From a virus (taxonomy: Duplodnaviria > Caudoviricetes): a DNA stretch of 64,000 nucleotides. The stretch is taken from positions 10,002 through 74,001 of the IMG/VR virus record IMGVR_UViG_3300029288_000153. The stretch is one strand, 5' to 3'. The notes beneath the pieces are model-generated. The model was not told the DNA's origin. It made no database searches and worked only from the letters and a program-made list of their open reading frames with translations. Made by a program: the position numbers and the translations under genes. Shown here piece by piece: positions 24,718-43,870 of this stretch (position 1 is the first letter of the stretch; the number at the start of each line of letters is the position of its first letter).

Positions 24718-26763
24718 ATGAGCAAACGATCTGTGGTGTCGGAAATACTATCAGCTATGCCGACTGGCATACGCCCCCCCGATAAGCGCACCCCTTTGGA
24801 TATCAATAGTCGCTCGGGGTTGCGTAATGTGTTGGATCAGAGATATTTGGCTAAGGGGGAGATGCCCGACAGTTCCCTGAATAAGACTATGGTGGTACCT
24901 AGGGACTCAAACACATTAGAGAAGTCGTTCAGAAAATTTTTGGACGGCCCCGAGGATTCGATCGAGCGGCTGGCCTTCGAGAGAGATCCACAGCGTATCT
25001 CAGAGTTTGCTGGCCTCTATCGACCTAAAATAGCGCTTATACCCGACACGCTACTCAAGCGAGCTGCTATCCAGGATGATCTGGTAGCGGCAATTGTCCA
25101 CACTCGCTGTAATCATTTATCTCAGCTGGGCAGGAAGCAACCGAATCGACACTCCAAAGGGTTCGTGATGGAGATCGATACGGATATTGACGCGTCATTG
25201 GACGACGCGCAGAAAAGGAAGCTGCAGGATCGGATTAACAGAGCCGAGAGATTATTGCTGACTTGTGGACACACTAAAGGGTGGGGGAAGCAAGATAGGT
25301 GTTCGTTTGCGGAATATCTCTACTTATCTACTCGCAATGCGGTGGTGGTGGGGCGTACCGCTACCGAGGTGATCAGTGTCCCGGATAAAAACGATCCCAC
25401 CAAACGTGTATTTCACTCTTTTCGACCTACTGATGCGGGGACTATCTACTATGCGGCGCCGTATCGGGACGCCCAGGAGGCGGTCAGGCAGCAGGCCAGG
25501 ATACTACTAGCACAACTAAAAAACGAGAAGTTGGTAGAGGATAAATTCATCAACGACGAGTATGCGTGGGTGCAGGTGATTGAGGGTCGCCCCACGCAGG
25601 CGTTTTCGTCGGATGAGATGTTGGTACAGAATTTTTACCCTGTGACTGACCTCGAACTACAGGGTTATCCCCTTACGCCGCTGGACACGGCGTTGACCGC
25701 TGTTACTACACACCTGAATATTTCGTCGCATAATAAGCTGTACTTTCAGTACGGCCGGGCTGCGAGGGGGATGTTGGTTATTAAGAGTCAAGACGTTGAC
25801 GCCGAAGTGGTCCAGGCAGTTAAACAGCAATTCAACGCCTCGATTAATTCGGTCTCAAATAGTTTTCGTATGCCATGTTTTGGGATCTCGCCTGACGATG
25901 AAATCACCTGGCAGCCAATCGATCAGGGATCGAGAGATGCAGAGTTTCAGTTTTTATCTGACTCAAACGCCCGTACTATTCTAGCCGCGTTTCAAATGAG
26001 TCCTGAGGAGTTGCCTGGGTACCAGCATCTTTCACGGGGCACCAGCAACCAGGCGCTGTCTGAGTCAAATAACGAGTATAAATTGACAGCTGCTCGTGAC
26101 GTTGGGATTCGTCCCCTGGTGGCCAAGATCGAAGACCACCTTAATGACTCGTTATTGCCTCTGATCGATCCGGAATTGGCCAAGATTGTTAAGATTCGTC
26201 TAGTAGGTTTGGACGTAGACGACCAAGAAAAAGAGAGTGTGCGCCTCCAGCAGGATATGGGCGTGCACATGACCTACGACGAGGTACTAGGAAAGGTCGA
26301 AAAAGACCCGTTGGGGAAGGATCTATGCGGCGGATTCCCTTTGAATCAGCAGGTGATGGCGTATGTCGAGAAGTATATGACATTCGGCGAGATCTTAGCA
26401 AAGCTTCGAGGGGTCAAGGGAGCTGATAAGGATCCGTCGTTGCAATTTTATCAAAATCCCGCTTGGTTGCAGTTTTATGGGTTACAAGCGCAACAGCAAG
26501 CGCAACAGGCGCCCCCCGGACAGCCCGGACAAAACAAGCAGTCGTCTGACGGGCAGGGCGGTGGAGAGTTGGGGAGCGCGGTAGATCAGTTGGGGGCGAT
26601 GCTGGGGAAATCCGAAGGGTTCCGAGGTACACTCAAGGCCCATCAGGCTAAGCTCAATCGATACATCATGGACACTTTTCAGGCCGAGACGGTTAAGCTT
26701 GTAAGTGAAATTGCGGACATCGCCGATATTCATAAGCCGCAGCCGCCTGTTGAGAAGAAATAA
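24718..26763 (+). CDS. portal protein
   Basis: HNKLYFQYGRAARGMLVIK...FNASINSVSNSFRMP...ITWQPI...DAEFQ...AFQMSPEEL pattern of SPO1/Twort-type portals; follows terL. Confidence 0.85.
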   Translation: MSKRSVVSEILSAMPTGIRPPDKRTPLDINSRSGLRNVLDQRYLAKGEMPDSSLNKTMVVPRDSNTLEKSFRKFLDGPEDSIERLAFERDPQRISEFAGLYRPKIALIPDTLLKRAAIQDDLVAAIVHTRCNHLSQLGRKQPNRHSKGFVMEIDTDIDASLDDAQKRKLQDRINRAERLLLTCGHTKGWGKQDRCSFAEYLYLSTRNAVVVGRTATEVISVPDKNDPTKRVFHSFRPTDAGTIYYAAPYRDAQEAVRQQARILLAQLKNEKLVEDKFINDEYAWVQVIEGRPTQAFSSDEMLVQNFYPVTDLELQGYPLTPLDTALTAVTTHLNISSHNKLYFQYGRAARGMLVIKSQDVDAEVVQAVKQQFNASINSVSNSFRMPCFGISPDDEITWQPIDQGSRDAEFQFLSDSNARTILAAFQMSPEELPGYQHLSRGTSNQALSESNNEYKLTAARDVGIRPLVAKIEDHLNDSLLPLIDPELAKIVKIRLVGLDVDDQEKESVRLQQDMGVHMTYDEVLGKVEKDPLGKDLCGGFPLNQQVMAYVEKYMTFGEILAKLRGVKGADKDPSLQFYQNPAWLQFYGLQAQQQAQQAPPGQPGQNKQSSDGQGGGELGSAVDQLGAMLGKSEGFRGTLKAHQAKLNRYIMDTFQAETVKLVSEIADIADIHKPQPPVEKK

Positions 26764-29094: not shown

Positions 29095-30134
29095 CGGTTG
29101 TTTATTCACCGATTGACGGTATTCGCGTTAACGAAAAAGGGGTGCTAGTAGAATCCAGTCGCACTAACTCAATTTTGCAGTCGCAGTCGCTCGCCACCTC
29201 TCCTTGGGGCGTTGCGCATGTTACTGTCGCTGATCCAACGGTGACCAATAATACCGTTGATGTACTAGCCCCTGACGGGACCCAGACGGCCACCAAGGTG
29301 ATTCTTCCGGCCGTGGCGGCTGGGGAGATGTCGTCGATACAACAGACGTTTACGGCTACGGCTACGGCATGGTCGGCTTCGATTTGGCTTCGGACCGCCA
29401 CCGGGACAGCAACGGTGTTTTTGCATCTCATTACAGGAGCAACGATCAAAACTGTGCAGTGCAATGTAACTAGTGATTGGACTAGGATCTCGCTCAACGC
29501 CCAGACCCTTACAGCTGCAACGTGGATCTACGAGCTAGGGGTTGATTGTGTAAACGGAGACGCGGAGCAACCGGCACAGACCGTTTACGCCTGGGGGGCC
29601 CAGTGTGAGCTAGGAGCATTTGCGTCGAGCTATATTTATACGGTGGCCGGGACACAAAATCGCCCAGCTGATATGGTATCTGTTGTGAACCCATTGTGTA
29701 ACTGCGATGATACTTGGATGATTGGCGGAACATTTACCCCGTACGTAGGATCTGCATGGAGTGCGGTCAGTTCTTCGACTATGTTGTGGGGCGTAAATGT
29801 TGGGACCGGCGCAAATACTGCGTACTTCTACCTCAACGGAACCAATTTGGCGTTTACGGTTCGCGACGTCAGCAATAATGCCAAAACTATTGCCGCTACT
29901 TTTAGCTGGACGACCGGCCAGATCACCAAACAGATATTTGCTAGTAACACCCGAGGGTTACTAGAGATATGGGTTGAAGGGGTGTCGGTGGGCAGTGTGT
30001 CCGGGACCGGAACGGGGATAATCAGTACCTGGCCATCTGCTATTGCGATCGGTCGCACGGGGACCGGTAGTCATTTTAATGGCTATGTGCGTGATTTCAA
30101 GATCGCACGACATGCGGATATAGCTAGGTTATAG
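29091..30134 (+). CDS. tail fibre / carbohydrate-binding module protein
   Basis: GVLVESSRTN...WGAQCELGAFASSYI...RPAD motif common in phage fibres, plus a LamG-like C-terminus; ATGA coupling at 29091. Confidence 0.65.
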   Translation: MTVVYSPIDGIRVNEKGVLVESSRTNSILQSQSLATSPWGVAHVTVADPTVTNNTVDVLAPDGTQTATKVILPAVAAGEMSSIQQTFTATATAWSASIWLRTATGTATVFLHLITGATIKTVQCNVTSDWTRISLNAQTLTAATWIYELGVDCVNGDAEQPAQTVYAWGAQCELGAFASSYIYTVAGTQNRPADMVSVVNPLCNCDDTWMIGGTFTPYVGSAWSAVSSSTMLWGVNVGTGANTAYFYLNGTNLAFTVRDVSNNAKTIAATFSWTTGQITKQIFASNTRGLLEIWVEGVSVGSVSGTGTGIISTWPSAIAIGRTGTGSHFNGYVRDFKIARHADIARL

Positions 30135-30197
30135 CTGTGAGCGTGATATTGTATATGTATGCGTTGAGTACCTAACCTTCCAACCGGCGGATCTGCG

Positions 30198-30803
30198 ATG
30201 AAAAAAATAACGGCAATTATCTTTAGTTTGTTTTTTGCGGTAGTCGCCCACGCCGTTGAGCCGGTGGTCGGCGTGATCCACGTAGAGTCGGAGTTTACTA
30301 GCGTGTTAGTATCGATGGTGGACTCGGAGCTAGCACAGGCCAAGGCCGCATCGGCAACGTCGTTGATAGTGTTGATCGACTCCCCCGGTGGAGGAATGGG
30401 GAGTATGCTCAAGGTCATCAAGGCGATATCTGATACGAAACTACCTACGGTATGTATTGTCGGCAACCAAGCAGCGTCGGCAGCGTTTGTCTTGTTGCAG
30501 TCGGAGGCCTGTACGGTTCGGATTGTTCGACCTTATTCTGTGTTGCTGGCGCATCTTGCTCGCTCGGCTGATGATACGCCGGCTAACGTCACAGAACTAG
30601 AGGAGAGGATCACGGATCTGAAACTATACGATCGGGTTATTGCGCTGCGGGTTTGTGGCCGAATAGGGATGACCCCAGATGAATATCTCAGCAAACTACA
30701 AAACGGCGATTGGGTCTCGTTGGGTGAGGATGCGGTGGCTAATCATCTAGCAGATAAGGTTATCCCCGGTGGCGTTGTGGTACAGATTGGGCCTCGATCG
30801 TAA
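30198..30803 (+). CDS. ClpP/crotonase-fold serine peptidase with Sec signal peptide
   Basis: MKKITAIIFSLFFAVVAHA signal; LIDSPGG, AASAAF (Ser), LLAH (His), GDW..EDAV..LADKV. Confidence 0.75.
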   Translation: MKKITAIIFSLFFAVVAHAVEPVVGVIHVESEFTSVLVSMVDSELAQAKAASATSLIVLIDSPGGGMGSMLKVIKAISDTKLPTVCIVGNQAASAAFVLLQSEACTVRIVRPYSVLLAHLARSADDTPANVTELEERITDLKLYDRVIALRVCGRIGMTPDEYLSKLQNGDWVSLGEDAVANHLADKVIPGGVVVQIGPRS

Positions 30804-30837
30804 TAGTAGATGTAGGGATCGACGAAGAGGAGGCGAT

Positions 30838-31041
30838 ATGGCGTTAGGACGGAAGTCGCAATACGCACTCACGGCGGCCTGGTTGCTCACGATGGGGTGG
30901 CTCTTGCAGGCTGCCTTGGTGGCCCTGCAGGATCAGTTTGGCACCTGGATGGCGGCCATATTGGCCATCTACGGCGGCCTGGTAGGAGCACACACGGCCA
31001 CTGACATGAAAAACGGTGCCCGACAGGACCCCACCAACTAG
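30838..31041 (+). CDS. small two-TM membrane protein, possible holin
   Basis: GAGGAGG RBS before ATG 30838; two hydrophobic helices and a charged C-terminus. Confidence 0.5.
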   Translation: MALGRKSQYALTAAWLLTMGWLLQAALVALQDQFGTWMAAILAIYGGLVGAHTATDMKNGARQDPTN

Positions 31042-31067
31042 ATTGTACGCCGCTGTGTTGTTGTGTT

Positions 31068-31832
31068 ATGGTATCTAAGGTACCGTGCGACGATATATTC
31101 AGTATCAGTAGAGGGGGTCCGGTGATTCGGATTAAGAGGTTGCCCCCCACGACAAAACAACTAGTTGACGATGGGTCTCTCGGGTATGTTCGTGTGGAAG
31201 ATGCGACAGGGCTAGCGCAGGGTGCTCAAGTCACGTTGAGTGCCGGTGTTTTGTCGGCGTCTGGTCTGAAAATTGTCGAGTTCAAGGGGGTGGCTGGACA
31301 ACCTAATGTAGAGATCCGGATTGTTGATCCGGTGACTGGCAGTGACTTCGACGCCTCAGCGTACACGACCGCATTGCAATCTGAGTTATTCGTCCCCGAG
31401 CAGACCTTGTGGTATGGGTTAGGTGATGAGGTGTACTCGGACGATGACGTGGCTGCGGTGTTTCGTGCTATACTACCTGCTGGCCCAGGTGTAGCCAGTA
31501 ACGTTGCGATCACCAACTTCCCTCCTCAACAACATGTTATTGTCGATGCCGGCGGTTCGTCTGTGGCTACGCCAAGTACAGTGATGGTATCGACCTCGGC
31601 GGTAACCTTGTTGCCTACGAACCTGCAGCGGCGAGGTGCGAGTATCTACAATGATAGTACAGGTACGTTGTATATTCAGGTGGGGGGTGAGGCGCCCGGC
31701 CCGCTATCTTTTGCTGCGAAGTTGTTCCAGGATGATTATTTTACTAGTGAATTTGACTATACGGGAATCATCCGGGGCATATGGAGTGGTGGTGAAGGCG
31801 AAGCTAAGATCGTGGAGTATAATCGGCCATGA
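31068..31832 (+). CDS. putative virion protein (paralogue of 27622-28305 plus a C-terminal beta domain)
   Basis: See paralogy above; C-terminal RRGASIYNDS..TLYI...YTGIIRGIW. Confidence 0.65.
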   Translation: MVSKVPCDDIFSISRGGPVIRIKRLPPTTKQLVDDGSLGYVRVEDATGLAQGAQVTLSAGVLSASGLKIVEFKGVAGQPNVEIRIVDPVTGSDFDASAYTTALQSELFVPEQTLWYGLGDEVYSDDDVAAVFRAILPAGPGVASNVAITNFPPQQHVIVDAGGSSVATPSTVMVSTSAVTLLPTNLQRRGASIYNDSTGTLYIQVGGEAPGPLSFAAKLFQDDYFTSEFDYTGIIRGIWSGGEGEAKIVEYNRP

Positions 31833-32050
31833 CCTTATTGGAGCAGTGGTGTATTCCTGTACGTTGTGGTCAATGTGGGGCGGTGGCCAGAATCAAGGCG
31901 TCAAATGTGGTGCGTTGGGATGATAGTTATCGGTGGAGATGTGTTGGGTGTCGGGGTTGGGGGGCGGTGGTCGTGCGTATACCGCTTTGTGTGCGGAGGG
32001 CGGCCAAGTCGCTGTCGATATGGCAGAGAATTAGGCGCCTATGGGGTTAG
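31829..32050 (+). CDS. small zinc-finger protein
   Basis: CGQC...CVGC; ATGA-coupled. Confidence 0.45.
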   Translation: MTLLEQWCIPVRCGQCGAVARIKASNVVRWDDSYRWRCVGCRGWGAVVVRIPLCVRRAAKSLSIWQRIRRLWG

Positions 32051-32429
32051 TTCGGTCGAATAGATTCAAAAACTTGGATCTAACCATCCCTGTGACCTGT
32101 GAGCTAGGGTGCGTGGTAGGGGATGTAGTGTATATGGTGGATTCTCGTATCGTTGCCCGAGTTGACCCTTTGTTGTACGCTAAGATGCCGGCCGCGGGGG
32201 TGATGATTGCGGTAAGCGGTGTCGATGGGGTGTTGGCCACCGGTGGGGTGATATATGGCATTTACAGCGGTTTGATCCCCGGGGGGTGTATTATGCGGGA
32301 GTAAATCACCGTCCTGTCTTGCTATCGACCCTCCAGGAGAGCCAGCGTCCGTTTTGCCAGCAATTGGGGGTGGCGGTGGCAGAAGATTCCTTGGGTATAC
32401 TTCTAGGAGTGTCGATTTCAAGGTTATGA
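32041..32429 (+). pseudogene. head-fibre/cement-like protein split by a -1 frameshift at C4G6 (32277-32286)
   Basis: Frame 0 stops at 32304. The -1 frame continues GVYYAGVNHRPVLLSTL...QLGVAVAEDSLGILL, which aligns with paralogue 32790-33341 (PYYLGHAGDPVLATAL...KVGYAKNATDLYIKI). Confidence 0.65.
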
Positions 32430-32472
32430 CGAGATGCAATCTACGATGTAGCTACCCGTACCTCAACGGAGT

Positions 32473-32787
32473 GTGACCATGAAGCGCCGGCTATCAAATA
32501 TTGATCGGTTAAGTGTTCTGCGGTGCGACGCCGAAATTCGTGCGGTCAACGCCAAGCGGGCTTTAGTGGTTCATTCGTTGACTCAGTACTTAAGGGACAT
32601 CGACCCCAACGGAGTAGTTAAAGGGATGGAGACCGAGTTGGCGTCTTTGCTAACAGAGAAGGAGAGGTGGCAAGGGGAATACAAGGCGGTATTGGAGAGG
32701 GTGCTTGTAAAAACTGGAATAAATCTAACGAGCTACACCTTTGATGATTGTACTGGGGAGCTTAGCTCAATGACGGAGGAAAGGTAA
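32473..32787 (+). CDS. hypothetical coiled-coil protein
   Basis: 104 aa in the structural block. Confidence 0.6.
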   Translation: MTMKRRLSNIDRLSVLRCDAEIRAVNAKRALVVHSLTQYLRDIDPNGVVKGMETELASLLTEKERWQGEYKAVLERVLVKTGINLTSYTFDDCTGELSSMTEER

Positions 32788-32789
32788 TT

Positions 32790-33341
32790 ATGGCGACTAG
32801 AAAATTTCTGTGGCAGAACCTCGGCGATGGCTCGGGTTTTGTTTATTCCGAGGATGGGCTCACTGCGGCCGATGAGGTGGACGTGCAGGGGGCGGGAATT
32901 ATTAATCTCAGGGCTCCTGTGGCCGACCAGGATGCGGCCACAAAAAAATATGTAGACGATTTGGTCGACGAAAACATGCAGTCGGCCGTTCAGCTTGATG
33001 TCGAGCTGACTGCCGCTGGCGCGGTGCCCGCTAAGAAGATCGTGTATTTTAGTGACAACGATGCGGTCAGCGTCGCAGATAGCAGTGACGCAGCTAAGGT
33101 GGGGGCGATCGGTTTCGCTTTGGCTGCTATCGCCGATACGGAAACGGGGACCATCCGACAGGCGGGGGTCGTTGAGGGGGTGTTGACGGGCGCCACTGCG
33201 GGTAGGCCTTATTACCTAGGCCACGCCGGGGACCCAGTACTAGCCACCGCCCTGGCCAACGGCGATAGGATCATTAAGGTTGGATACGCCAAGAACGCCA
33301 CCGATCTATATATCAAGATCGACGACGTTGGGAAGAAGTAA
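32790..33341 (+). CDS. head-fibre/cement-like virion protein
   Basis: PVADQDAATKKYVDD, then IVYF..AVSVAD..AIGFA..GVVEG..PYYL..VGYA. Confidence 0.65.
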   Translation: MATRKFLWQNLGDGSGFVYSEDGLTAADEVDVQGAGIINLRAPVADQDAATKKYVDDLVDENMQSAVQLDVELTAAGAVPAKKIVYFSDNDAVSVADSSDAAKVGAIGFALAAIADTETGTIRQAGVVEGVLTGATAGRPYYLGHAGDPVLATALANGDRIIKVGYAKNATDLYIKIDDVGKK

Positions 33342-33346
33342 TAGCA

Positions 33347-33952
33347 ATGGCGCTCTACCGGCCGCTCCGACTGGACGGGGGTGACGACGCCTTGGCGGAG
33401 TATCCGGTTCCTATTAACCCTGCGGCGGATCAAATCGCCGCCGCAGGGTTTTATCCACAGTACGGTACTGGATTTGATTTGAGCGCGGGGGTTACCCGGG
33501 ATTTTACTGGTCGTCTGATGTTGGGCGACGATTTAACAGGCAATTGGCCCTTGCTGAACCTGTTGCAGTTGACGTCCTTCGCTGAAGTGACCTCGGATGT
33601 TTCGACCTCGTCTGTCGACTGGGTCGATTTGCTGACCGTCAATATTAAGACAGTGGTCAATCAAAACGTCTACTTATTGGCCGTGGCGACGTTTGGAATG
33701 GACGCGGCCAATAAGATGACGTACTTTAGGGTGTTGTTTGATGGGCGAGTCTGTCGTGGTGCGGGGGCCAGGTATCCCGGTACCCCCGCAACCACAGTGT
33801 CTATTTTAAGTCAAGTCGTACACCCCCGTGCCGACGCTCATACTGTCACCTTGCAGTGGAAGGTGGGGTCAAGTAAAGCTCGTATACGGCCCGTAACCAT
33901 CCCCGATGCCGAGAGTTGTTCGTTGCTGGCGTTGGCTGTTGGGTCGCTGTGA
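33347..33952 (+). CDS. putative virion/fibre protein
   Basis: Beta-rich 201 aa in the structural block. Confidence 0.6.
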   Translation: MALYRPLRLDGGDDALAEYPVPINPAADQIAAAGFYPQYGTGFDLSAGVTRDFTGRLMLGDDLTGNWPLLNLLQLTSFAEVTSDVSTSSVDWVDLLTVNIKTVVNQNVYLLAVATFGMDAANKMTYFRVLFDGRVCRGAGARYPGTPATTVSILSQVVHPRADAHTVTLQWKVGSSKARIRPVTIPDAESCSLLALAVGSL

Positions 33953-33998: not shown

Positions 33999-36890
33999 TT
34001 GGTATCTGCGAGGTCATCGATGAGCTTGGTTATATATGGGGTTATCGGTAGTGAGGCGATTGATTCTTCGTCCGAGATGTTGTCGGTCAAGGGGTGTGAT
34101 ATCTCCACCCTTGCTCAAAGCGGTGTGCTAAATTACGAGCACGTTGGCAATGAGGACGGGTCGTTTAATTCTATAATCGGTAAATGTATCAAAGCAAAGA
34201 AGATTTATTCGTCCTCTGATTGTGAGGACAGCAACGAAGAAAAATGTTGGGCGGCCACCGGAGTGCCTTTTATTTATGGGGTGTTTCGTCTTTTTGATGG
34301 TGCTGGCCATCCCAATGCGGTAGCGGCTGCTGCGATAATGAGAGATCAGGCGGCTCATGGCGAGGATCAAATCCTACGTCTGAGTATTGAAGGCAACACC
34401 TTAGAGTCTAAGGACGGGGTCTTGGTTTCCACGATTGCCAAAAACGTGGCTTTGACTAAGGCTCCGTGTAACAAGACCGCCATTACGGGGATTGTCGGCG
34501 ACCCTCAAAAGGAAATGTCGGAGGACGGTGATCTATCTGATATTCTAGCTACCAAAAAAGGTGGAGATCTCAATATCCGGTTGTCGTCGGTCCCTTTTAT
34601 TTATGCGCCGTACGAAGAACCTCTTGATGCGATCGATGCCTTTGTTGTGAACGCCAAAAGGGTAATTGAGTTGGCGAAAGCCATGACGGCCGGTGGGGAC
34701 AATGTAGCTCCCTCTTCGTTGACGGGCGGTAGCGCTCTGATGCGCGAGGACCTTGGCGGCGACCAACGGAAGCGTCTGATTGCTGTTTGCAAGGCCGCTC
34801 TACGAGATCACAACCCTATGGTACATGGGCCATTTAGGCGGTTTTTGAAAAGTTTATTGCCAGAAGTCAGTGATGAGTTTTTGGATAGATTTCAGGAGGT
34901 TGCTGACGATCTCGATGTCAAGGCTAAGCTAAATTATTTACGCAAGGACGAGGGCGATCTGTCCGTTGAGAAGATGTTGAACGCGGCCAAAGATGATGCC
35001 TATGTCCGTCGAGATCTAGCTCGACACCCCAAGTTGCCGCCGGAGCTAATGCCTCAATTGGCGCAGGACAAAGACGAAGGTGTCCGTCGATACCTAGCCC
35101 TACACCCCCAGTTGCCGCCGGCAGCGATGTCTCAATTGGCGCAGGATTCAAGCGAATATGTCCGTCGAAATCTAGCCCAACACCCCAAGTTGCCGCCGGA
35201 GCTAATGCCTCAATTGGCACATGATGAAGACAAATATGTTCGCCAAAATCTAGCTGGACATCCCCAGTTGTCGCCGGAAGCGATGTCTCGGTTGGCACAT
35301 GATGAAGACAAATATGTTCGCCAAAATCTAGGTGGACATCCCCAGTTGCCTCCAGAGCTGATGTCTCGGTTGGCGCAGGACAAAGACGAAGGTGTCCGTC
35401 GAAATCTAGGTCGACATCCCCAGTTGCCTCCGGCAGCGATGTCTCAATTGGCGCAGGACAAAGACGAATATGTTCGCCAAAATCTAGCCAAACACCCCCA
35501 GTTGCCTCCAGAGCTGATGCCTCGGTTGGCGCAGGACAAAGACGAAGGTGTCCGTCGAAACCTAGCTCGACACCCCAAGTTGCCGCCGGCAGCGATGTCT
35601 CAATTGGCGCAGGATTCAGACGAAGGTGTCCGTCGATACCTAGCCCTACACCCCCAGTTGCCTCCAGAGCTGATGTCTCGGTTGGCACAGGATTCAAGCG
35701 AATATGTCCGTCGAAATCTAGCCCAACACCCCCAGTTGCCGCCGGAGCTGATGCCTCAATTGACGCAGGACAAAGACGAAGGTGTCCGTCAATACCTAGC
35801 TCGACACCCCCAGTTGTCGCCGGAAGCGATGTCTCGGTTGGCACATGATGAAGACAAATATGTTCGACAAAATTTAGCTGAGCACCCAAACCTGTCGCCG
35901 GAAGCGATGTCTCGGTTGGCGCAAGACGAAAACGAAGATGTTCGCCAGTGGGTGTTTGAGTGGCATAATCCCGACCAATTAACCAAAGAGCACGTGAACG
36001 TCAAATACAATACCACCAAGCTCCGTAAGATTCGTGATCACATTTTGGCTCAGGGGAAGACTGAGATGTCTCCCAAAGACCTCCCTCCGGGGGACTGGAG
36101 TGTGGGGCGTGTGTCTTCGGGAAACATCTCAGCACAGAAGATCCAAGAACACATCGACCGGATGTCTGCGACTAGGTTTACTATCAGTCATGGCACCTGG
36201 GCAGGTGCCCAACGGCACTCTGGGGAGTCGTCCAAGGTTTTCCAAGTCGGGTTGTCGACTGACACTATCCAGAAACTGAAGGCCGCCGGTGTCTATGGGT
36301 CGTTCCGGAAGATCTATGACGAAAACGTAACCGACGCCCATCCCCATGGGCCGTCGGGAATCGGGTGGGTTAGGTGGACGGGCGATCAAAAGGGTGTTCA
36401 CATCGACGAGGTACAGTCTGATATCGGCCGGCAATTCGGCAAATACAAAGAAGCCTCTTCGGATAAGCAACCCCTTGTTCCCGACGAACACCGCCAGAAG
36501 ATCAAGGCGATTGTTTTCAGTGACCGACACCCCAACGAGGTGCTACACGAAGCCTTTCAACAACACTTACGTGACCGAGGGTGGATAGACACGCCGGTAC
36601 ACACATGGACACCCGAAACCAAAGCGCCCCTGTCCTCTTTGGATGCCAATAAACCGATCCCCGGTCACATGCAAGTAACATACCGGGATATCCCAAAGAA
36701 GATGGGCTGGGAGGAAGGGCGGTATGGTTCGTTGCCGACGCAGAAAAACAAAAAGCTAAAGGATAGTACGACCGTCGGTGACGCGGTGAGAAAAGCGGAG
36801 GAGCAGGTCGTAGGGGTGAACTGGCCTGATGTTTTTGTAAACGTGTCTGCATCAGAAATAATACGAAACGCGAGTATCCGTTATGGATAA
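33999..36890 (+). CDS. prohead (capsid maturation) protease fused to LRV repeats and a C-terminal DEVQSD domain
   Basis: N-terminal D-x-x-x-E, LNYEH (His), IIG, LSIEG (Ser at 34383), NVALTKAPCNKTA matches SPO1/Twort-type prohead proteases. Twelve 26-aa repeats follow. Confidence 0.85.
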   Translation: MVSARSSMSLVIYGVIGSEAIDSSSEMLSVKGCDISTLAQSGVLNYEHVGNEDGSFNSIIGKCIKAKKIYSSSDCEDSNEEKCWAATGVPFIYGVFRLFDGAGHPNAVAAAAIMRDQAAHGEDQILRLSIEGNTLESKDGVLVSTIAKNVALTKAPCNKTAITGIVGDPQKEMSEDGDLSDILATKKGGDLNIRLSSVPFIYAPYEEPLDAIDAFVVNAKRVIELAKAMTAGGDNVAPSSLTGGSALMREDLGGDQRKRLIAVCKAALRDHNPMVHGPFRRFLKSLLPEVSDEFLDRFQEVADDLDVKAKLNYLRKDEGDLSVEKMLNAAKDDAYVRRDLARHPKLPPELMPQLAQDKDEGVRRYLALHPQLPPAAMSQLAQDSSEYVRRNLAQHPKLPPELMPQLAHDEDKYVRQNLAGHPQLSPEAMSRLAHDEDKYVRQNLGGHPQLPPELMSRLAQDKDEGVRRNLGRHPQLPPAAMSQLAQDKDEYVRQNLAKHPQLPPELMPRLAQDKDEGVRRNLARHPKLPPAAMSQLAQDSDEGVRRYLALHPQLPPELMSRLAQDSSEYVRRNLAQHPQLPPELMPQLTQDKDEGVRQYLARHPQLSPEAMSRLAHDEDKYVRQNLAEHPNLSPEAMSRLAQDENEDVRQWVFEWHNPDQLTKEHVNVKYNTTKLRKIRDHILAQGKTEMSPKDLPPGDWSVGRVSSGNISAQKIQEHIDRMSATRFTISHGTWAGAQRHSGESSKVFQVGLSTDTIQKLKAAGVYGSFRKIYDENVTDAHPHGPSGIGWVRWTGDQKGVHIDEVQSDIGRQFGKYKEASSDKQPLVPDEHRQKIKAIVFSDRHPNEVLHEAFQQHLRDRGWIDTPVHTWTPETKAPLSSLDANKPIPGHMQVTYRDIPKKMGWEEGRYGSLPTQKNKKLKDSTTVGDAVRKAEEQVVGVNWPDVFVNVSASEIIRNASIRYG
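35004..35939 (+). repeat. 12 tandem 78-bp coding repeats (LRV/HEAT-like, VRxxLAxHPxLPPxxMxxLAxDxDxx)
   Basis: Counted directly from the translation and DNA. Confidence 0.92.
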
Positions 36891-38916
36891 TGACAAGTTG
36901 ATGAGTGCTTCGTTAGATGCCGCTCGCCGTGGTGATTGGCAGAGGGCCATCGATCTGGCCAGACAGGTGCCTAAAAATTGGGACGTCTGGCAACAATTCC
37001 CGTCGATCGCGTTAGGTGACGAAGGGCAGGGGGCGGGGCTCCCTGATAGCGCCGTACACGCCATCATGGATGTAATCCCACAACAAAATCTGCTTGGATT
37101 TCTCTACGAATATTCCACTAACCTACCGCCGACGGCCGGGGTGGAGGTACTTGGTAGAGTGGCCGATGCCGCAAAGGAAGACTATCTAACTACAGATAAC
37201 GTGACCCAGCACCCAAACTTCAAACTCGACCCTCACTCTAAGGCCCTAAAAAACGCCAGTGACTTCTGGGCAACATACGAGACGGAGGTAGGTGCTCATC
37301 ATTTTGCGGTGGTGAAGAGTCTGTTCACCGGCCGCCCCGAGGAAGTGGTGGATCATAGAGGTCAATCCGGTTCATCTGAGCAGCATATTCATCTGCTGCC
37401 TGATCTATCCGTATATGCCCAAGAGGTACAGCGCGCTGTATTACACGACGCCAATGATCGAGGGCATCAGATCAGGTACTTCGGCGCCGAGCCTCATATT
37501 AAGGTGTATCGCGGTGTTGGTGGCCGATACGCGGCGGAGATAAGTAAGGCAGCCAACTATGATCCGGTAAGCGGTAAGGTAGACGGCAAGAATTTACGTA
37601 TTCCAACATCCCACTTGACCTCGTGGTCGACCGACCCTACGCTGGCTCATCGTTTTGCTACCACGCGAGCTACCGACCAAGAGACGGCGAACCGACCTGA
37701 ACATCAGGTCGGTGTAGTGGTAGAAAAATGGATGCCGGTTAAGAATATTTTACACTCAGGATATCATACCGTGGTGCCCAGTCAGAATCATCCACATGCA
37801 GACGAGGAAGAGTTGGTGTTCGGCCATATGAACGAACATGTCAAGGTACCAACCACCTCCATACATTTTTTATCGCAACCTACATCGGAGCAGGGCTATC
37901 AGTACCCGTGGGGGTCGAAACGTGGGGTGGCTCGTCCGAGCCCCTCGACGGCATCAAGGTCCCCGGGGGCACTTCACAAAGACGAACAAGATACCAAGGA
38001 GCCTTATTGGTGGCATGGGACACCTAGTGGCGACATGAGGGGTGGATCGACGGGTCTTCATATCGGAACCAAGAAGGCCGCCACCGAGGCCTTAACGGCT
38101 CGTATCGGACACCCCGTGGAGGGTAGTTGGGATGGCACCAGGGAGTACGGTAAGACCCTGTTGGCCGGGAAAAAGACGTTACGGGCTCGTGGTATCTATC
38201 CCACCGGATATAGTGCCGAGTTGGCGCCTGAAGAGGATTTTTACGCCGATTCCATGCCACGGTTTTCGACCGACGTGCCAATGCTGCCTACGCATAAGCC
38301 TATAATATTTCCTGTCGCGATAGTAGGTAAGATGTCCAACACTCCACAGACACCTCATGCAGACTTTGCGGCCAATAGCAGGATGAAATCAGCTTTGCAG
38401 CGAGGTGTGGCTCGTAGGGGGTACTACTACGCCAACATTGGCGAGGACGCAGGAAATATCAGCGCGGTGCTACCTGGTCCCGAACACGTGCGGCGGCTTG
38501 ATGGGTTAGGCAAGTCAGAGGTGGAAATCGACCCCCACGTGGTGGTGGCCATTGTGGCCCAAGATGGACTGGGGCGTATCCTATGGGGGCGGAAGCGGAG
38601 CAACAAAAAATGGTGTGTGCCGGCCGGTCACGTAAATTTAAACGAACATCCGGTGGATGGAGCCAAGAGGGAGCTGGGTGAGGAGACCGGTTTGATCCCT
38701 CGGCAGATGTGGTTGGTGGGGAGCGGGAATACCGCCGATGGGTCCATTTACGTCTACTACTGCGTGGTGGACGGTACTGTCACGCTCGCGCACGATCCAG
38801 ACAACGAATTCGCACAGCTGATTTGGGTGGATTGTCTACGTGGTTTGCCCGACTTTATTCGGATGAATCTAGCGCACGCGCCCGATCTGGTCTGTGAGTT
38901 GATGGGGTGGCAGTAG
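36883..38916 (+). CDS. multidomain virion-type protein: R-S-E ART-like + HGT ART-like + NUDIX hydrolase
   Basis: VYRG..TSWS..DEEELV; WHGT..GLHIGT..YYYANIGEDAGNIS; perfect Nudix box GHVNLNEHPVDGAKRELGEETGL. Confidence 0.8.
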   Translation: MDNDKLMSASLDAARRGDWQRAIDLARQVPKNWDVWQQFPSIALGDEGQGAGLPDSAVHAIMDVIPQQNLLGFLYEYSTNLPPTAGVEVLGRVADAAKEDYLTTDNVTQHPNFKLDPHSKALKNASDFWATYETEVGAHHFAVVKSLFTGRPEEVVDHRGQSGSSEQHIHLLPDLSVYAQEVQRAVLHDANDRGHQIRYFGAEPHIKVYRGVGGRYAAEISKAANYDPVSGKVDGKNLRIPTSHLTSWSTDPTLAHRFATTRATDQETANRPEHQVGVVVEKWMPVKNILHSGYHTVVPSQNHPHADEEELVFGHMNEHVKVPTTSIHFLSQPTSEQGYQYPWGSKRGVARPSPSTASRSPGALHKDEQDTKEPYWWHGTPSGDMRGGSTGLHIGTKKAATEALTARIGHPVEGSWDGTREYGKTLLAGKKTLRARGIYPTGYSAELAPEEDFYADSMPRFSTDVPMLPTHKPIIFPVAIVGKMSNTPQTPHADFAANSRMKSALQRGVARRGYYYANIGEDAGNISAVLPGPEHVRRLDGLGKSEVEIDPHVVVAIVAQDGLGRILWGRKRSNKKWCVPAGHVNLNEHPVDGAKRELGEETGLIPRQMWLVGSGNTADGSIYVYYCVVDGTVTLAHDPDNEFAQLIWVDCLRGLPDFIRMNLAHAPDLVCELMGWQ

Positions 38917-38970
38917 TCGGTACGTGCCGCCGTGTTATAATGATGATGCGGGCTACCGACAAGGAGACGT

Positions 38971-39249
38971 ATGTTGGAAATGAACATAAAAATCTACGAC
39001 AACGGTAGGGTTTGTCGGTTTTTTGGCACAGAGCGCGAAATGGAGACCAAATTACGTCATATGTTCCCGACTGAAACCCAAAATGTTCGGGGATTAATTG
39101 GCTGTGTGGATGCGATTACTCAAGGTGGGTTCGCTGAGGTCGAGGTAGAGAATTGGCACGAACCCCCCGAGCGGAACGTGTTGCCTGAGGACTATCTTAC
39201 ATCTGACTCGGGAGATGATCCTTGGGTCCGGGAAGGGGACCGAGAGTAA
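38971..39249 (+). CDS. hypothetical protein
   Basis: GGAG RBS; TGT-TATAAT just upstream. Confidence 0.6.
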   Translation: MLEMNIKIYDNGRVCRFFGTEREMETKLRHMFPTETQNVRGLIGCVDAITQGGFAEVEVENWHEPPERNVLPEDYLTSDSGDDPWVREGDRE

Positions 39250-39301
39250 TCTGAGATGCGTTGTCCGATAGGCGAAAGTGCCGCGATGTAATCTAATCAA
39301 C

Positions 39302-42300
39302 ATGGCCCTCAAGCCGACCACCCTTTCAGTCACCGAGTTGGACCCTCAGCAAATTGCTTCCAGGGTGGTAGATCAAGTCGATCAATCTACTAAGTACCGT
39401 ACCACAGATCCTACGCAAGAGCGGGAGTTTACGGCCCGAAAGAAACCCGCCCCAATCTATAGCCCTCATGATATAGACGAAGCCCCCGACGAAGCCCCAA
39501 ACCAAGGCATTGAGTACCCGGCGATATGGAAACAGAAGGCTTCGCTGACCCCCACGCAGTTAGTTATTGCCCATAAGTTGATGGGGCATATGTCGTCTTC
39601 CACCCCTCTTTCTGCGCCAGATCTATATCGAGCCTACAAGCATTCACCACAAACCCCCGCCTCCGTTTTTTTGAAGTACTCCGTGCATCGGATCAACCAT
39701 CTAGACGACTACGGCGATCCTCGAAAGGCACATGATTTAGATAAACAGTTCTTGGGGTTGGTGCAGAGAGGCAAGGCTGAGGATAAAAATGGTCATGTGT
39801 CTGTTTCGGATCTACACGGCTGGACACGCCGCCACGCCGCCAGGATTATTCCCGAGATACTAGCGATCCGAGATAAACATCAAAAACACATCTTAAGAGG
39901 TATTGGGTTAAATGTCCGGTCGATCAACGGCCAACCTCATGTGGCTCTGACCAGAGGGTTGGAGTCAGATTTTATGAGCGACGAGCATCCACTATCTAGT
40001 CACGCGGATAAGCCAGAAACTGGATTCGGTTTATGTATGCACCATAGTTGGGTACCGGTACGTGATCTATGGTATTCGTTTGATTTAGGAACAAAATATA
40101 GTACGGGGAATATGGGCCCTGAGGACGAATATCTGATATCCAATACGTTACCTAGGTATCAGGCAACTCCCAATGACGTCACGATGGGGCGCATTAAGCC
40201 TTATACATTAGATAGCGGTGTTGGCGTTCCTGAGAGCGAGTATGCGTACGACTCTGATACTGATCAGCAATTAGCCGCCAAGGTAAATGCGTTGCCGGCG
40301 GATACCTCCTCGGCTCTCGATGGGTTGTTAAATCAGATATATCAACTCCCAAATGCAGGTGCGGCCGTTTACGAGGCGGTCAAAAAAAAGCTCCCGAACT
40401 TCCACCATATTAAAAGTGACTACTATTGCTATAAATGGTATCCGCGCGAAGAGATCATGCGCGACTACGGCAATGTCGTTGATATAGCCCGTGCCGAACC
40501 TTTACAGAACCCCAATCTGACTTCACAGGATTTAGACAAATTAAGTCGGGCTGTATTAAATCCGAGTTTGCTTCGCCCCGAGTCGCACCCGGATCCCGAA
40601 AGGGCTAAGAGAGATGTCATTTTAGAGTGGATGCGGCATCCATCCATGACCTCACATGTCTTAGAACGTACATGGAAGAACACTCCGTCAAGCAATCCTC
40701 TTCGAAGTCGGTTATTGGAATCACCTCTAGCTACCCCCGTGATGCTACAGGAGGTAACTGACCAGATCGATGACGATAAAGACAACGATCACGCGGTTAC
40801 GTCTTTATTGGGGGTCGTCCGCAACCCCCATCACACTGAAAAGCATGGACAGGTGGCATATGATTGGGCGGTGCGACATGGATTATTCGACGATACGGCG
40901 ATAGTAGGCGGTTTGCATGCTATAGTCACCGCCGCCAAGTTGCCGATTCAGACTGTTCGCCAGATGGCGGACAAACAGGATACGTTTGCAGGTAGGCAAG
41001 TACTCAAGAGATACGTTTCCTTCAATCCCCGCGCCGCCCCTAATATAGCACAGCTCGCTGTTGAAGGAAAAGTTTCTCGTGAACATCTGAATTCAAGATT
41101 GACATCCCTCCGTAAGCTCGAATCAGAGCTACAGATGCCATATCTACGGATGTTACTAGATGGCGACGTGGCGAATATTAAGAAGCTAAAAGCGAATGTG
41201 TCAGGGCGCGATGCTTATGATGTGGCGATTAATTCTAGTTTGACTCCGGAGTCGATCAGATTGTTGAGTCACTATCCGATTAAAAGTGTTCGCAACGCGT
41301 TATTTCACAACAAATCCGTATTGCCCGAGCAGATCAAAGAAGCGTTTCCAAAGGAGCTACCGTTTCCTCAGCCCCCTACCCTACTGGCCCCCCTACCCTC
41401 AACTGGCGATCCTATTGCTGATGAGATAGCCGCTGCGTATTATAGCCGCAAGGCCTACGAGGATCAAAGGAACAAGAAACATTTAATCAAACCTCTGCCG
41501 CCTGATCTTGCGAAGTCTGATGTGGATATGTGGCGAGCGCAGGTCCGCGAGTGGTTGGCCGACCAGGAAGTGAAAGGGTACTACCTGGTAGTTGATCAAG
41601 AGCATGCCACTAATATAGTACGAGATCAAGCTATTGAACCGCAGTTTACCGATAGGTTGTTGGAGGGGGAGGCGATTTTTGCGCACAGAGCCTCTCCTGT
41701 ATTTATCGGCAATTGGCACCTGACCGCTCATCCGGATGACGTGTTGGTTTATTTCGAGACTTCTAGTCAACCTCAACAACAAGGTGACGAGTACTACTGG
41801 ACTGCTCGGATTCCAATCGAGAACGCTCGTATAGTCGATGTGGCCACGCCGCTGGCTAAGTTTCAAACGCCGCTTATGTTCCCGGGGTTGGGAATATCAG
41901 ACGATCGTCGTGAAACCAAGATTATACAAACACCTACGGAACGCAAAGGTGTGGCGAGAGCTGCTGCCGCACAGGCGGTACGAGAAAATCAGGTCGGGGA
42001 TGTGTCGTTTGATCCTCAAGTTAACATTAAAATAGCCAATAGGGCCTATGGTCGTTATCGGAAATTAGTGACTGAGGGATCTTCTCCTGAAGGGGTGACC
42101 TTCGAGGGGGTGGCGGGGGTAGGTCATCCGGGTTTTGGCATTAAAAAACAGGATAGAGAGCGAATCCCAGGAGCCGGATCTGGACAGTCTGCTATATCCA
42201 TTGCCGTTGTGCCTGCCCAAGACAACGCGGGGGACAAGGGGGTTCCGGCCACGGTAGTCCACGAAAATCTACATCGTATTTTTTCGCGGGTGCAACATCG

Positions 42301-43870
42301 TCATGGCACGTCGGCCCGAAACACACTAGCAACGAATCTGCTATACGCCCTACCACAAGACACCCGAGAGGCGATATCGGAGCATATGTTATATCAAAGA
42401 ACCGACCTGCCTCCTGGGCCTGGGTGGGATGAGGAAGCGCTGACCATGTTGGGATCGTACTTGAATGACCCAAAGGCTCGCAGATCGTTTCACGACAAAC
42501 AACAGCACTCCCCTGAGCAAGAGCAGCAATTTTCGGAGAAGATGAAGCGAGCATATAAGACCCTACACGCTATCTCGGGAACTGTACACGAAGGGTGGTT
42601 ACATCGCTTGCGTCCGTGGCTACATAAAGGGCAAGGTGAAGTGCCGGCCCATCAGCTAATTGACGTGGATTTAGGCAAATCGGACTCTATCGGGTTCATT
42701 TTATCGGACGAAAAGGTGTTTGGGGCCGGCGAGGAGTCGGCTGCTAATATGTTGTTGGGGCATAATAAGCACCACGATGTTGCCGTGGCGGCGGCTATGT
42801 TTTTGGTGGGTCGCAGCCGCTTGCCCGACGACGACGCATTTCGTACTGCCATGCGGGTCTATGATGGAGACTACGAGAGTGCTGCATTGTTCTCGGTGGG
42901 GCTAACTAACTCCACAGAGAATCTGCGAGCCCTAAGGGCCGCTATTGAGTTAGGTGAGTTCGATAAGACACTATCTAAGTCCGAGTATCCAACGACGCGC
43001 ATTGGGTCCGTGGGGGCCGGTACAGTAGACGCACAAGATACTGCCAATCAAGTAGCCAGAGGGGTGACGGCCGGTTTGGTGCGAGCACTTCATCTCCGTG
43101 GCAAGCATTCGGCCGGCGCCACGGCGGTGCGTGATCCTCAGACAGGTGGTGTCTGGCTACTTAAGCCAGCTGCCAATAAGCCTAGTCCAGCTAAGGGGAT
43201 TAGAGAAGACCCGTCCAGTCAGTCTGAGCGCGAGGCGGCTTTTTGGCATTGTGCTCAGGTAATGGGTTTGGAGAGGTATATGCCTCGCTGTGACCTATTA
43301 GTAGTCGACGGACATAAAGTAGCGGCCATCAAGCTGTTAGGCGATAGGTGGCATGGTTTATCGGAGCGCGACAAGGCGGTTGCAAATAGAGCTGTAGAGA
43401 TTCTGACTCCATATTTGCAACGTGGAGATGTGCATCGGTTCGCGATTATGGATTGGGTGCTGGGCCAGGTAGATAGGCACGGACAAAACATCCTGACAAC
43501 CAACCATGCTATTGCGTTGATCGACGAGGGGTCTACGTTTGCTGCCGCGGGCTTCAATCCGGGCTGCGATACTAAGTCGTTCGTCCCTTATTATCTTAGA
43601 GTATTTGCTCCGAGTGGTTTTTCTACAAAAAACCCCGACGATCGGGCGCGTGGTTTACCTGTGCTGGAACACGAGGTTGATGCACAGGTGCGTCAATGGG
43701 TCAAGAATATCGATCCCGCTACGCTATTAGAAACAATGTCTCGATACGGGATCGGCGCCGTTGCGCAGAAAGCGGTATTATCGCGGCTCGACGCCCTACA
43801 ACACGCCACCGTGTCGTCGATTAGCTCGTATGTCAATCAATTGTGGTGTGGTGTTCACTCCCACGATTGA
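39302..43870 (+). CDS. ~1520-aa polyvalent virion-type protein: ART-like, HEAT/LRV-like, HExxH peptidase and PI3/4K-HipA-like kinase
   Basis: LTRG..LSSH..PEDEYL; VVHENLH..DEEAL; WLLKP..EREAA..DRHGQN..IDEG. TAATCTA lies 6 nt before ATG 39302. Confidence 0.8.
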   Translation: MALKPTTLSVTELDPQQIASRVVDQVDQSTKYRTTDPTQEREFTARKKPAPIYSPHDIDEAPDEAPNQGIEYPAIWKQKASLTPTQLVIAHKLMGHMSSSTPLSAPDLYRAYKHSPQTPASVFLKYSVHRINHLDDYGDPRKAHDLDKQFLGLVQRGKAEDKNGHVSVSDLHGWTRRHAARIIPEILAIRDKHQKHILRGIGLNVRSINGQPHVALTRGLESDFMSDEHPLSSHADKPETGFGLCMHHSWVPVRDLWYSFDLGTKYSTGNMGPEDEYLISNTLPRYQATPNDVTMGRIKPYTLDSGVGVPESEYAYDSDTDQQLAAKVNALPADTSSALDGLLNQIYQLPNAGAAVYEAVKKKLPNFHHIKSDYYCYKWYPREEIMRDYGNVVDIARAEPLQNPNLTSQDLDKLSRAVLNPSLLRPESHPDPERAKRDVILEWMRHPSMTSHVLERTWKNTPSSNPLRSRLLESPLATPVMLQEVTDQIDDDKDNDHAVTSLLGVVRNPHHTEKHGQVAYDWAVRHGLFDDTAIVGGLHAIVTAAKLPIQTVRQMADKQDTFAGRQVLKRYVSFNPRAAPNIAQLAVEGKVSREHLNSRLTSLRKLESELQMPYLRMLLDGDVANIKKLKANVSGRDAYDVAINSSLTPESIRLLSHYPIKSVRNALFHNKSVLPEQIKEAFPKELPFPQPPTLLAPLPSTGDPIADEIAAAYYSRKAYEDQRNKKHLIKPLPPDLAKSDVDMWRAQVREWLADQEVKGYYLVVDQEHATNIVRDQAIEPQFTDRLLEGEAIFAHRASPVFIGNWHLTAHPDDVLVYFETSSQPQQQGDEYYWTARIPIENARIVDVATPLAKFQTPLMFPGLGISDDRRETKIIQTPTERKGVARAAAAQAVRENQVGDVSFDPQVNIKIANRAYGRYRKLVTEGSSPEGVTFEGVAGVGHPGFGIKKQDRERIPGAGSGQSAISIAVVPAQDNAGDKGVPATVVHENLHRIFSRVQHRHGTSARNTLATNLLYALPQDTREAISEHMLYQRTDLPPGPGWDEEALTMLGSYLNDPKARRSFHDKQQHSPEQEQQFSEKMKRAYKTLHAISGTVHEGWLHRLRPWLHKGQGEVPAHQLIDVDLGKSDSIGFILSDEKVFGAGEESAANMLLGHNKHHDVAVAAAMFLVGRSRLPDDDAFRTAMRVYDGDYESAALFSVGLTNSTENLRALRAAIELGEFDKTLSKSEYPTTRIGSVGAGTVDAQDTANQVARGVTAGLVRALHLRGKHSAGATAVRDPQTGGVWLLKPAANKPSPAKGIREDPSSQSEREAAFWHCAQVMGLERYMPRCDLLVVDGHKVAAIKLLGDRWHGLSERDKAVANRAVEILTPYLQRGDVHRFAIMDWVLGQVDRHGQNILTTNHAIALIDEGSTFAAAGFNPGCDTKSFVPYYLRVFAPSGFSTKNPDDRARGLPVLEHEVDAQVRQWVKNIDPATLLETMSRYGIGAVAQKAVLSRLDALQHATVSSISSYVNQLWCGVHSHD

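Follow-up and report, generated by a model that had tools for sequence, protein, structure and literature searches.

A prohead protease fused to enzyme cargo and a lysine junction motif suggest capsid-matured polyvalent proteins in an uncultured Mx1-like phage

How the enzyme modules of phage polyvalent proteins are separated from one another has been an open question since these proteins were first described, the usual guess being that they are cut by their own zincin domains. The question is raised by a locus at positions 33999 to 43870 of the window, by which we mean the whole 64,000-nucleotide stretch of DNA analyzed here (positions 10,002 to 74,001 of the virus record IMGVR_UViG_3300029288_000153), where three large open reading frames (ORFs) follow one another and the first opens with a putative prohead protease. 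An earlier note on this DNA proposed that the three ORFs encode polyproteins whose domains are bounded by one short motif, and that they are packaged, cut after Lys and injected with the genome. Sequence comparison and structural modeling support this core interpretation; cleavage, packaging of the two proteins that are not fused to the protease, ejection and the targets of the enzymes are the parts that we infer. In the explanation that we favor, and regard as fairly probable, the enzymes are packed in the head as polyproteins, cut after Lys by a fused protease of the SPO1/A511 type and delivered with the DNA.

33999..36890, plus strand: ORF of 963 amino acids (aa), comprising protease, spacer and cargo polyprotein (database entry P0004)
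36883..38916, plus strand: 677-aa ORF with an ADP-ribosyltransferase (ART)-like domain, module B and NUDIX
39278..43870, plus strand: 1530-aa ORF (GTG start at 39278; alternative ATG at 39302)

The three ORFs that had been described are all present at these lengths, and each listed motif was found at the nucleotide where it had been placed. Every one of the three proteins combines at least two unrelated effector-type domains in a single chain, as polyvalent proteins do, and together the ORFs occupy part of the late region, between the portal and MuF-like genes and later structural genes (sheath, 59844 to 62279). The end of the 963-aa ORF and the beginning of the 677-aa ORF share 8 nucleotides, an overlap that suggests coupled translation. 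The start of the 963-aa ORF is uncertain, the database call opening at ATG 34020 and giving 956 aa. The record that holds the window is a 74-kb viral fragment, 45% complete by CheckV, and its source is an uncultured phage related to Myxococcus phage Mx1 and, given the sheath gene, a myovirus: synteny with the 169-kb Mx1 genome takes in helicase, sigma-like protein, phosphoesterase, large terminase, portal and MuF-like protein, and the two portals are 47% identical.

34020..34523, plus strand: assemblin-fold prohead serine protease core (about residues 8 to 175), with His48 at 34140 to 34142 and Ser129 at 34383 to 34385

On sequence and model evidence, the N-terminus of the 963-aa ORF is a prohead protease, as had been proposed, and belongs to the SPO1/A511 lineage: its modeled fold is that of assemblins, its catalytic residues are invariant, and it is homologous to the protease of SPO1. 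In the AlphaFold2 (AF2) model, the core exceeds a predicted local distance difference test (pLDDT) score of 95, and its best structural match is T4 gp21 (5jbl_B; Z 10.6, root mean square deviation 2.9, 125 residues aligned), with herpesvirus assemblins at Z 7 to 9.2 and unrelated folds next at Z 5. This fold comparison was needed because other routes gave nothing significant: a Pfam search of the 963-aa protein matched no protease family, the PHROGs family phrog_1028 ("head maturation protease") matched residues 20 to 51 only, and weakly (E = 0.0088), and a profile of the protease family met no meaningful match among PDB sequences. Alignments of 60 and of 74 homologues show no variation at His48, Ser129, Glu131 or Gly132, the His and Ser lying in the motifs N[YWF]EH and S[IV]EG. 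The domain shares 26% identity with the SPO1 head maturation protease gp3.2 (pairwise BLASTP E = 5e-6), whose NFDH and FSVEG align with NYEH and LSIEG here, and residues 1 to 308 are 38% identical to the N-terminal part of an Mx1 protein of 1239 aa, the "putative prohead protease", the gene for which is syntenic with that of the window, after terminase, portal and MuF-like gene.

Among 50,697 cultured-phage records, only Mx1 has a homologue of the protease domain, and a single-protein scan of viral contigs with the domain returned no relatives. The family was reached through protein searches, an exhaustive one yielding 778 cluster representatives (727 at E < 1e-10), almost all of them uncultured. 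Most of these clusters are proteins of 600 to 1950 aa with the protease at the N-terminus and a variable C-terminal cargo, including PI3/PI4-kinase-like, GGDEF and NUDIX domains. The cargo of the 963-aa protein is likewise covalently fused to an enzyme type that works inside proheads, a point in favor of its packaging.

34671..34682, plus strand: site 1, L225-A-K227/A228, the predicted self-release site
34680..34937, plus strand: copy of the capsid N-terminal arm (AMTAGGDNVAPSSLTGGSALMRED) with a helical spacer, residues 228 to 313, a candidate capsid-targeting segment

Where, then, might this protease cut? K227 is kept in 71 of 74 homologues (96%), exactly at the end of the assemblin-type domain, and K227/A228 aligns column for column with K23/S24 of the capsid protein (Cps) of Listeria phage A511, for which a mat_peptide line in RefSeq entry NC_009811 starts the mature protein at residue 24 (EDALK/SFTTG). 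The same column holds ALNK/ALEAGH of the SPO1 capsid protein, ELAK/AMTAGG of the 963-aa protein and the L.K/A[LM]E.G of five Mx1-like capsid N-termini. The original paper on the A511 cut is said to be that of Loessner and Scherer in 1995; our literature search met no text confirming the cut, which is taken here from the mat_peptide line. What follows the site copies the N-terminus of the capsid protein: the window reads ELAK/AMTAGGDNVAPSSLTGGSALMRED after the protease, with no second such copy in this genome, Mx1 has the same layout with LRK/AMEAGNFNAKPSTLVQGSAMQIED, and four metagenomic relatives share it (L.K/ALE.G...). The protease of SPO1 also has a K/S site followed by a capsid-arm copy (PLDK/SLEAGY), and proteases of this lineage may generally use the copy for targeting. 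In SPO1 (L007, 1916 to 3420), the repeat covers about 32 residues of the phage's own capsid N-terminus and begins directly after the K/S site.

34938..34952, plus strand: site 2, L314-R-K316/D-E, which closes the conserved N-terminal unit
24718..26763, plus strand: portal protein, with candidate sites YLAK46/GE (24847 to 24861) and MLGK631/SE (26602 to 26616)

A second site ends the unit formed by protease, arm copy and spacer. [LIVMF]xK lies at most 4 aa from its column in 158 of 196 homologues (column consensus L314-x-K316-[AD]-E), the segment is disordered in the AF2 model, and 188 homology end points cluster at residue 311. The motif also recurs in head proteins. Scaffold-like proteins encoded directly upstream of the capsid gene carry four to five sites each in Mx1, L004, L005, L006 and L014, the SPO1 scaffold has 11 [LIV]xKS in 244 aa, and the two portal sites, one near each end, align among the portals of the window, Mx1 and L005. 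Across the Mx1 region examined, head or cargo proteins account for all seven strict sites, the other proteins having none (p = 0.006). Cleavage of capsid and scaffold by this protease is supported at the level of sequence by motif conservation in relatives together with the A511 annotation. The capsid gene of the phage itself, sought in the record with the Mx1 capsid protein and PF05065, is absent from the fragment, and the sole match of the Mx1 capsid search in the record is residues 221 to 252 of the 963-aa ORF, the N-arm copy.

Does the motif exceed chance in the three ORFs? In the form first proposed, [LIVM]-x-K-[SADE], it does not: 13 sites were found against 10.6 expected from shuffles, and the density of 4.1 per 1000 aa compares with 3.2 in the other 87 ORFs (Fisher p = 0.26). 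One of the listed sites, LAKF (41852), falls outside that definition, and four matches that had not been listed (LTKA152 and VCKA263 in the 963-aa protein, VVKS143 and ISKA220 in the 677-aa protein) all lie inside confidently folded elements of the AF2 models. A stricter form, L-x-K-[SD]-[ED], occurs at 6 sites where 0.26 are expected, a count reached by 0 of 2000 shuffles, and at only 3 in the other 19.8 thousand aa (p = 4e-4), one of them near the portal C-terminus. This form was refined on the same window data as it was tested on, so that independent tests carry the weight. For these, we used 111 dereplicated cargo regions sharing at most 5% of their 5-mers (81.6 thousand aa in all). Scans of single positions gave Lys at P1 with 5.1-fold enrichment (next residue, 2.0), Leu at P3 with 5.1-fold (Met, Val and Ile, 2 to 3), Ala and Ser at P1' with 7.4- and 6.1-fold, and Glu at P2' with 7.6-fold. 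L.K[AS]E was counted 42 times, compared with 4 for the reversed motif, 5 to 9 for shifted or permuted ones and 3 with Arg at P1, and these counts exclude an effect of Lys/Ala/Glu-rich linker composition. A chance origin of the pattern seen in the three ORFs, or its origin as a side effect of such linkers, would suit the chance frequency of the loose motif and the weak discrimination of a matrix scan, but we consider it very improbable in view of the strict and independent counts above and of motif columns conserved in 70 to 190 homologues.

Position gives a further line of evidence. Module limits were drawn, with the motif left out of account, from BLAST comparisons of the three ORFs with all the proteins retrieved, and 244 of the 424 resulting homology end points lie at most 15 aa from the ten sites, compared with 44 ± 50 for random positions; the end points are not independent of one another, and their clusters agree with the placement of the sites. 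The earlier claim that the motifs mark domain boundaries is borne out in this respect, the sites coinciding with homology breakpoints and, where the 677-aa protein was modeled by AF2, with disordered linkers or their edges.

34986..35963, plus strand: about 11 LRV/HEAT-like repeats, a cargo module (Pfam PF01816, E = 2.6e-55; PDB 1lrv)
35979..35990, plus strand: junction L661-T-K663/E664, with homology of the next module beginning at residue 666
35994..36779, plus strand: module 666–927, containing DEVQSD803, with weak GNAT-like leads
36786..36800, plus strand: junction V930-R-K932/A-E, with module homology ending at residue 927

In the 963-aa protein, the conserved unit extends to about residue 311, the LRV array that had been recognized earlier is confirmed by Pfam, and module 666–927 is flanked by K663 and K932. 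This module is 39% identical to residues 274 to 568 of P0148, where it is joined to GGDEF. A matrix trained on site 2 of other genomes scores no position of this genome higher than the junction at K932.

37237..37881, plus strand: ART-like domain of the R-S-E type, residues 119 to 333, preceded by a helical domain (1 to 114)
37972..37986, plus strand: junction L364-H-K366/D-E, within a 39-residue disordered linker (334 to 372, pLDDT <50)
37999..38508, plus strand: mobile module B, residues 373 to 542, present in about 28 other polyvalent proteins, where its position varies
38506..38520, plus strand: junction L542-G-K544/S-E, with AF2 confidence falling at residue 543
38533..38913, plus strand: NUDIX hydrolase domain (Pfam PF00293, E = 4.4e-15) with an intact Nudix box (residue 582)

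In the 677-aa protein, homology defines a module A ending at 332 to 351, module B at 376 to 540 and NUDIX from 551, with K366 and K544 in the gaps; end points flank K366 in clusters at residues 344 and 376, and 30 of them cluster at residue 540, near K544. The AF2 model agrees, residues 1 to 333 and 373 to 542 being well folded and the linker between them holding LHK/DE. The ART-like domain is modeled at pLDDT 85 to 97 and has the motifs YRG209, SWST247 and EEEL308. A wide structure search gave moderate but consistent ART matches for residues 119 to 343 (Z 5.5 to 6.5, ART2.2 included), led by C3bot2 at Z 6.5 and with C3stau2, C2-I, Vis, Certhrax and HopU1 at Z 5.9 to 6.3; it did not resolve module B and the NUDIX part, and Foldseek with the whole 677-aa model returned nothing significant. 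Module B often adjoins ART-PolyVal (PF18760) in homologues and gives weak ART-PolyVal, TNT and PARP leads, and homologues of the whole protein carry ART-PolyVal, MuF, InPase and PBECR5 domains. Three ART-like domains had been called by the earlier note: the first domain of the 677-aa protein stands on its fold and motifs, whereas the second one there and that of the 1530-aa protein were not confirmed. The NUDIX call was upheld by Pfam and by the intact Nudix box.

39596..40180, plus strand: module 107–301, 39% identical to residues 1156 to 1353 of P0162, where LSKSD stands 15 aa upstream
41507..41521, plus strand: junction L744-A-K746/S-D, recognized by sequence, after a Pro-rich stretch
41852..41863, plus strand: L859-A-K861/F862, at the N-terminal edge of the zincin module
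41861..42640, plus strand: HExxH zincin-like module, residues 862 to 1121, with HENLH at residue 995
42671..42685, plus strand: junction L1132-G-K1134/S-D; zincin homology ends at 1108 to 1126 and helical-plus-kinase homology begins at 1144 to 1159
42971..42985, plus strand: junction L1232-S-K1234/S-E, before the kinase core, with kinase-only homologies from residue 1237
42986..43867, plus strand: PI3/PI4-kinase-like or HipA-like kinase domain, with DRHGQN1399 and IDEG1415 and 35% identity to the Mx1 "kinase"

In the 1530-aa protein, homology places the zincin-like module at 859 to 1121, and K861, K1134 and K1234 match module edges; Mx1 has ALKKGE at the position aligned with the K1234 junction. 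The peptidase motif HExxH that had been noted is present at residue 995, and the predicted kinase has its expected motifs and a match to PI3_PI4_kinase (PF00454, E = 0.0023) that is sub-threshold here and above threshold in homologues. Module 107–301 is the one that had been called ART-like, and its comparison with the ART domain of the 677-aa protein for paralogy gave no decision. A homologue search with the C-terminal 826 aa returned one protein. P0235, a metagenomic protein of 1375 aa, has four tandem zincin-like modules, all keeping HExxH, followed by a helical-plus-kinase unit; each copy opens with LEK[TAF], with VKSE, NKAEE or LKSE ahead of three of them. Motifs of the same kind stand at the junctions of unrelated module combinations in P0204, P0205, P0206, P0162 and P0235 (NKKSE, LKKDE, VKKSE, LSKSD, VKSE, NKAEE, LKSE), and two motif-free polyvalent homologues come from Mu-like and SU10-like phages with no protease of the Mx1 type within 10 kb.

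Might such junctions be left uncut, the motif serving as a linker or docking element (for instance in binding scaffold or the capsid interior) and the polyvalent proteins acting intact? The virion RNA polymerase of phage N4 works as an intact multidomain protein. Some polyvalent proteins are described as transferred unprocessed (PMC5512222), and site 1 lies in a predicted helix. However, the homologous position of A511 Cps is an annotated maturation cut, the signature of the motif is protease-like and position-specific from P3 to P2', and the sites coincide exactly with the edges of mobile modules, in linkers modeled as disordered; we judge this explanation improbable.

A second alternative accepts the cut and assigns it to another peptidase, either the HExxH zincin-like module or the ClpP/NfeD-like ORF at 30198 to 30803. 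The zincin-like module is present within the locus and four-fold in P0235, metallopeptidase autoprocessing has been argued for polyvalent proteins (PMC5512222), the ClpP-like ORF lies in the late region of the window, and motif-bearing polyvalent proteins stand near a ClpP-like gene in another lineage. In contrast, the same motif occurs at capsid N-termini, including the annotated A511 cut, and in the scaffolds and portals of SPO1 and Mx1-like phages, and 96% of the family keep site 1, precisely where the assemblin-type domain ends. SPO1, which has the motif, lacks a ClpP-like gene, L005 has none between its MuF-like and protease genes, and that of Mx1 belongs to a replication module and is not orthologous to the one in the window. 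ClpP is unlikely as the cutting enzyme, and we assign a low probability to another peptidase as a whole.

It is also conceivable that the proteins are cut but their products not delivered, being degraded as core or scaffold-like material and expelled from the head, or acting late as enzymes of the producer cell. In this lineage the scaffolds, which have many sites, are presumably destroyed, and the LRV array and the helical spacer could be structural. This nevertheless appears rather unlikely: the NUDIX, kinase and ART-like modules have kept their catalytic motifs intact, modules of these types characterize T4 Alt and the polyvalent proteins that virions deliver (PMC5512222), and the spacing of sites is module-sized, unlike the dense spacing in scaffolds.

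We therefore return to intracapsid processing by the fused protease, against which several observations have to be weighed. Cleavage, presence in the virion and ejection are steps that we infer, and the capsid and scaffold sites are taken from relatives, both genes being off this fragment. Both the zincin-like module and the ClpP-like ORF could cut, and P0222, P0225 and P0208 carry the motif although only a ClpP-like protease was seen within 10 kb of them, no DNA of their lineage being available for a search for the assemblin type. As to the motif itself, 40 of the 111 cargo regions are without any site, the matrix trained on site 2 of other genomes discriminates poorly genome-wide, and 23 of its 40 top matches fall in the late block, which contains 47% of residues. 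Three window sites are off consensus (LAKAM, LTKEH and LAKFQ), and Asp at P1' (LRKDE, LHKDE) lies outside the residues preferred by the family. Finally, site 1 is placed inside a helix by the AF2 model, and the K746 site was recognized by sequence, with no homology breakpoint there.

We propose that the protease would cut after Lys in [LMVI]-x-K/[ASGD]-[ED], and that the arm copy and spacer would bring it, with its fused cargo, into the assembling prohead. Once inside, it would trim capsid, scaffold and portal proteins and release itself at K227/A228, and the same motif in the inter-module linkers of the 963-, 677- and 1530-aa polyvalent proteins would also be cut. The modules so freed (LRV array, module 666–927, ART-like domain, module B, NUDIX, zincin-like domain and kinase) would stay inside the head and reach the host alongside the DNA, ready to act as effectors. 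We predict that the two unfused proteins are encapsidated because they share the sites, because of the 8-nucleotide overlap and because relatives have kinase and NUDIX joined to the protease; such fusions there include kinase, NUDIX and GGDEF modules resembling those of the unfused ORFs. Extended to Mx1-like phages at large, the proposal would be of an intracapsid polyprotein strategy in which a capsid arm serves as entry ticket and a linker code, [LMVI]-x-K/[AS]-E, allows modules to be swapped freely, a generalization for which we see the chances as about evenly balanced.

How does this compare with known systems? The closest is the SPO1 gp3.2 or A511 type of the Herelleviridae, which has homologous protease, portal and capsid proteins, a cut after Lys at the capsid N-terminus, a protease followed by K/S or K/A and a capsid N-arm copy, and a scaffold rich in [LIV]xKS. 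The SPO1 protease differs in being a stand-alone protein of 256 aa, whereas that of the window and of most of the 778 clusters is the N-terminus of an enzyme-carrying protein of 600 to 1950 aa, and here the neighboring polyvalent proteins reuse the site between modules. In herpesvirus pUL26, an N-terminal assemblin of the same fold releases itself from a C-terminal part that carries the protease into the procapsid; that part is a scaffold and the sites are Ala/Ser, in contrast to the enzymes and repeats found here. The T4 protease acts at L/I-x-E, where it strips single-domain proteins of a short N-terminal targeting peptide, whereas here the site follows Lys and lies between several enzyme modules of one chain, and the protease is fused to cargo. 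P1 is Lys, with neither Arg nor other residues enriched, and no targeting peptide of the T4 type was recognized in the 677- or 1530-aa protein, the capsid N-arm copy being present only in the 963-aa protein. What T4 gp21 with IPI–III and Alt shares with this locus is an assemblin-fold protease, the best structural match, and head-packed proteins that include an ADP-ribosyltransferase; as is generally known, the protease-processed head proteins of T4, this enzyme among them, are injected (PMC5512222).

The phiKZ and SPN3US phages belong to a lineage unrelated to that of the window; their motif differs and is reported to end in Glu, and we know of no protease-cargo fusion among them. In these phages, many ejected head-internal proteins are processed at a short motif by the prohead protease (PMC5694885, PMC7411985, PMC10052503). 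Polyvalent proteins, as described by Iyer, Burroughs, Anand, de Souza and Aravind in 2017 (PMC5512222), are multi-enzyme proteins whose genes neighbor those of the virion and which are predicted to travel into the host with the DNA, and they share ART, NUDIX, kinase, zincin, GGDEF and GNAT module types with the proteins discussed here. That study attributes processing mainly to zincin-like peptidases, finds assemblin-like peptidases "always" C-terminal and gives no junction motif, whereas in the present proteins the peptidase stands at the N-terminus and the junctions carry a defined site. In our literature search, neither Mx1 nor any relative was described as having this system. We see it as akin to two known kinds, polyvalent proteins and the internal proteins of T4 or phiKZ, and as well supported by comparative evidence.

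The locus and its family of 778 clusters point to a capsid maturation protease that would recognize the same site between cargo modules. If this is true, the motif predicts the mature ends of thousands of uncharacterized anti-host or anti-defense modules in hundreds of uncultured phage lineages, the free shuffling of domains is explained, and a natural system for loading chosen proteins into phage heads is suggested. Mx1 has been cultured, and its host, Myxococcus xanthus, is amenable to genetics.

Other features of the window and its relatives were observed alongside. The block at 27622 to 33952 is missing from the same position in Mx1 and L005; it encodes two paralogues (227 and 254 aa), a 353-aa Laminin_G_3/tail-like protein, the ClpP/NfeD-like ORF of 201 aa (30198 to 30803) and a 183-aa fiber-like protein, and may be an accessory decoration or fiber module with its own protease. 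Mx1 (L013) has a strong ClpP homologue at 6702 to 7265 (E = 1.4e-34), beside the primase-helicase gene and away from the head genes. On L009, a Mu-like phage contig, in the region 6165 to 11818, a Portal_Mu portal is fused to an InPase domain in a protein of 1278 aa, and the next gene encodes a MuF-InPase protein with module B and without an L-x-K-[SAD]-[ED] site, which is a different way of loading module B. Two low-complexity, Lys/Ala/Glu-rich late proteins of 492 and 452 aa (51074 to 52552 and 58402 to 59760) have CxxC pairs and x-K-A-E matches (MNKAEE, VQKAED, IGKAEE, TRKAEK, TKKAEF), and by sequence they are candidates for further substrates or internal proteins. The sigma-like protein of 352 aa (17744 to 18802), whose Mx1 orthologue has no strict motif site, contains four high-scoring matches (ELAKGE, LFKAER, LEKAES and FKKDI) that may be due to chance or may hint at processing.

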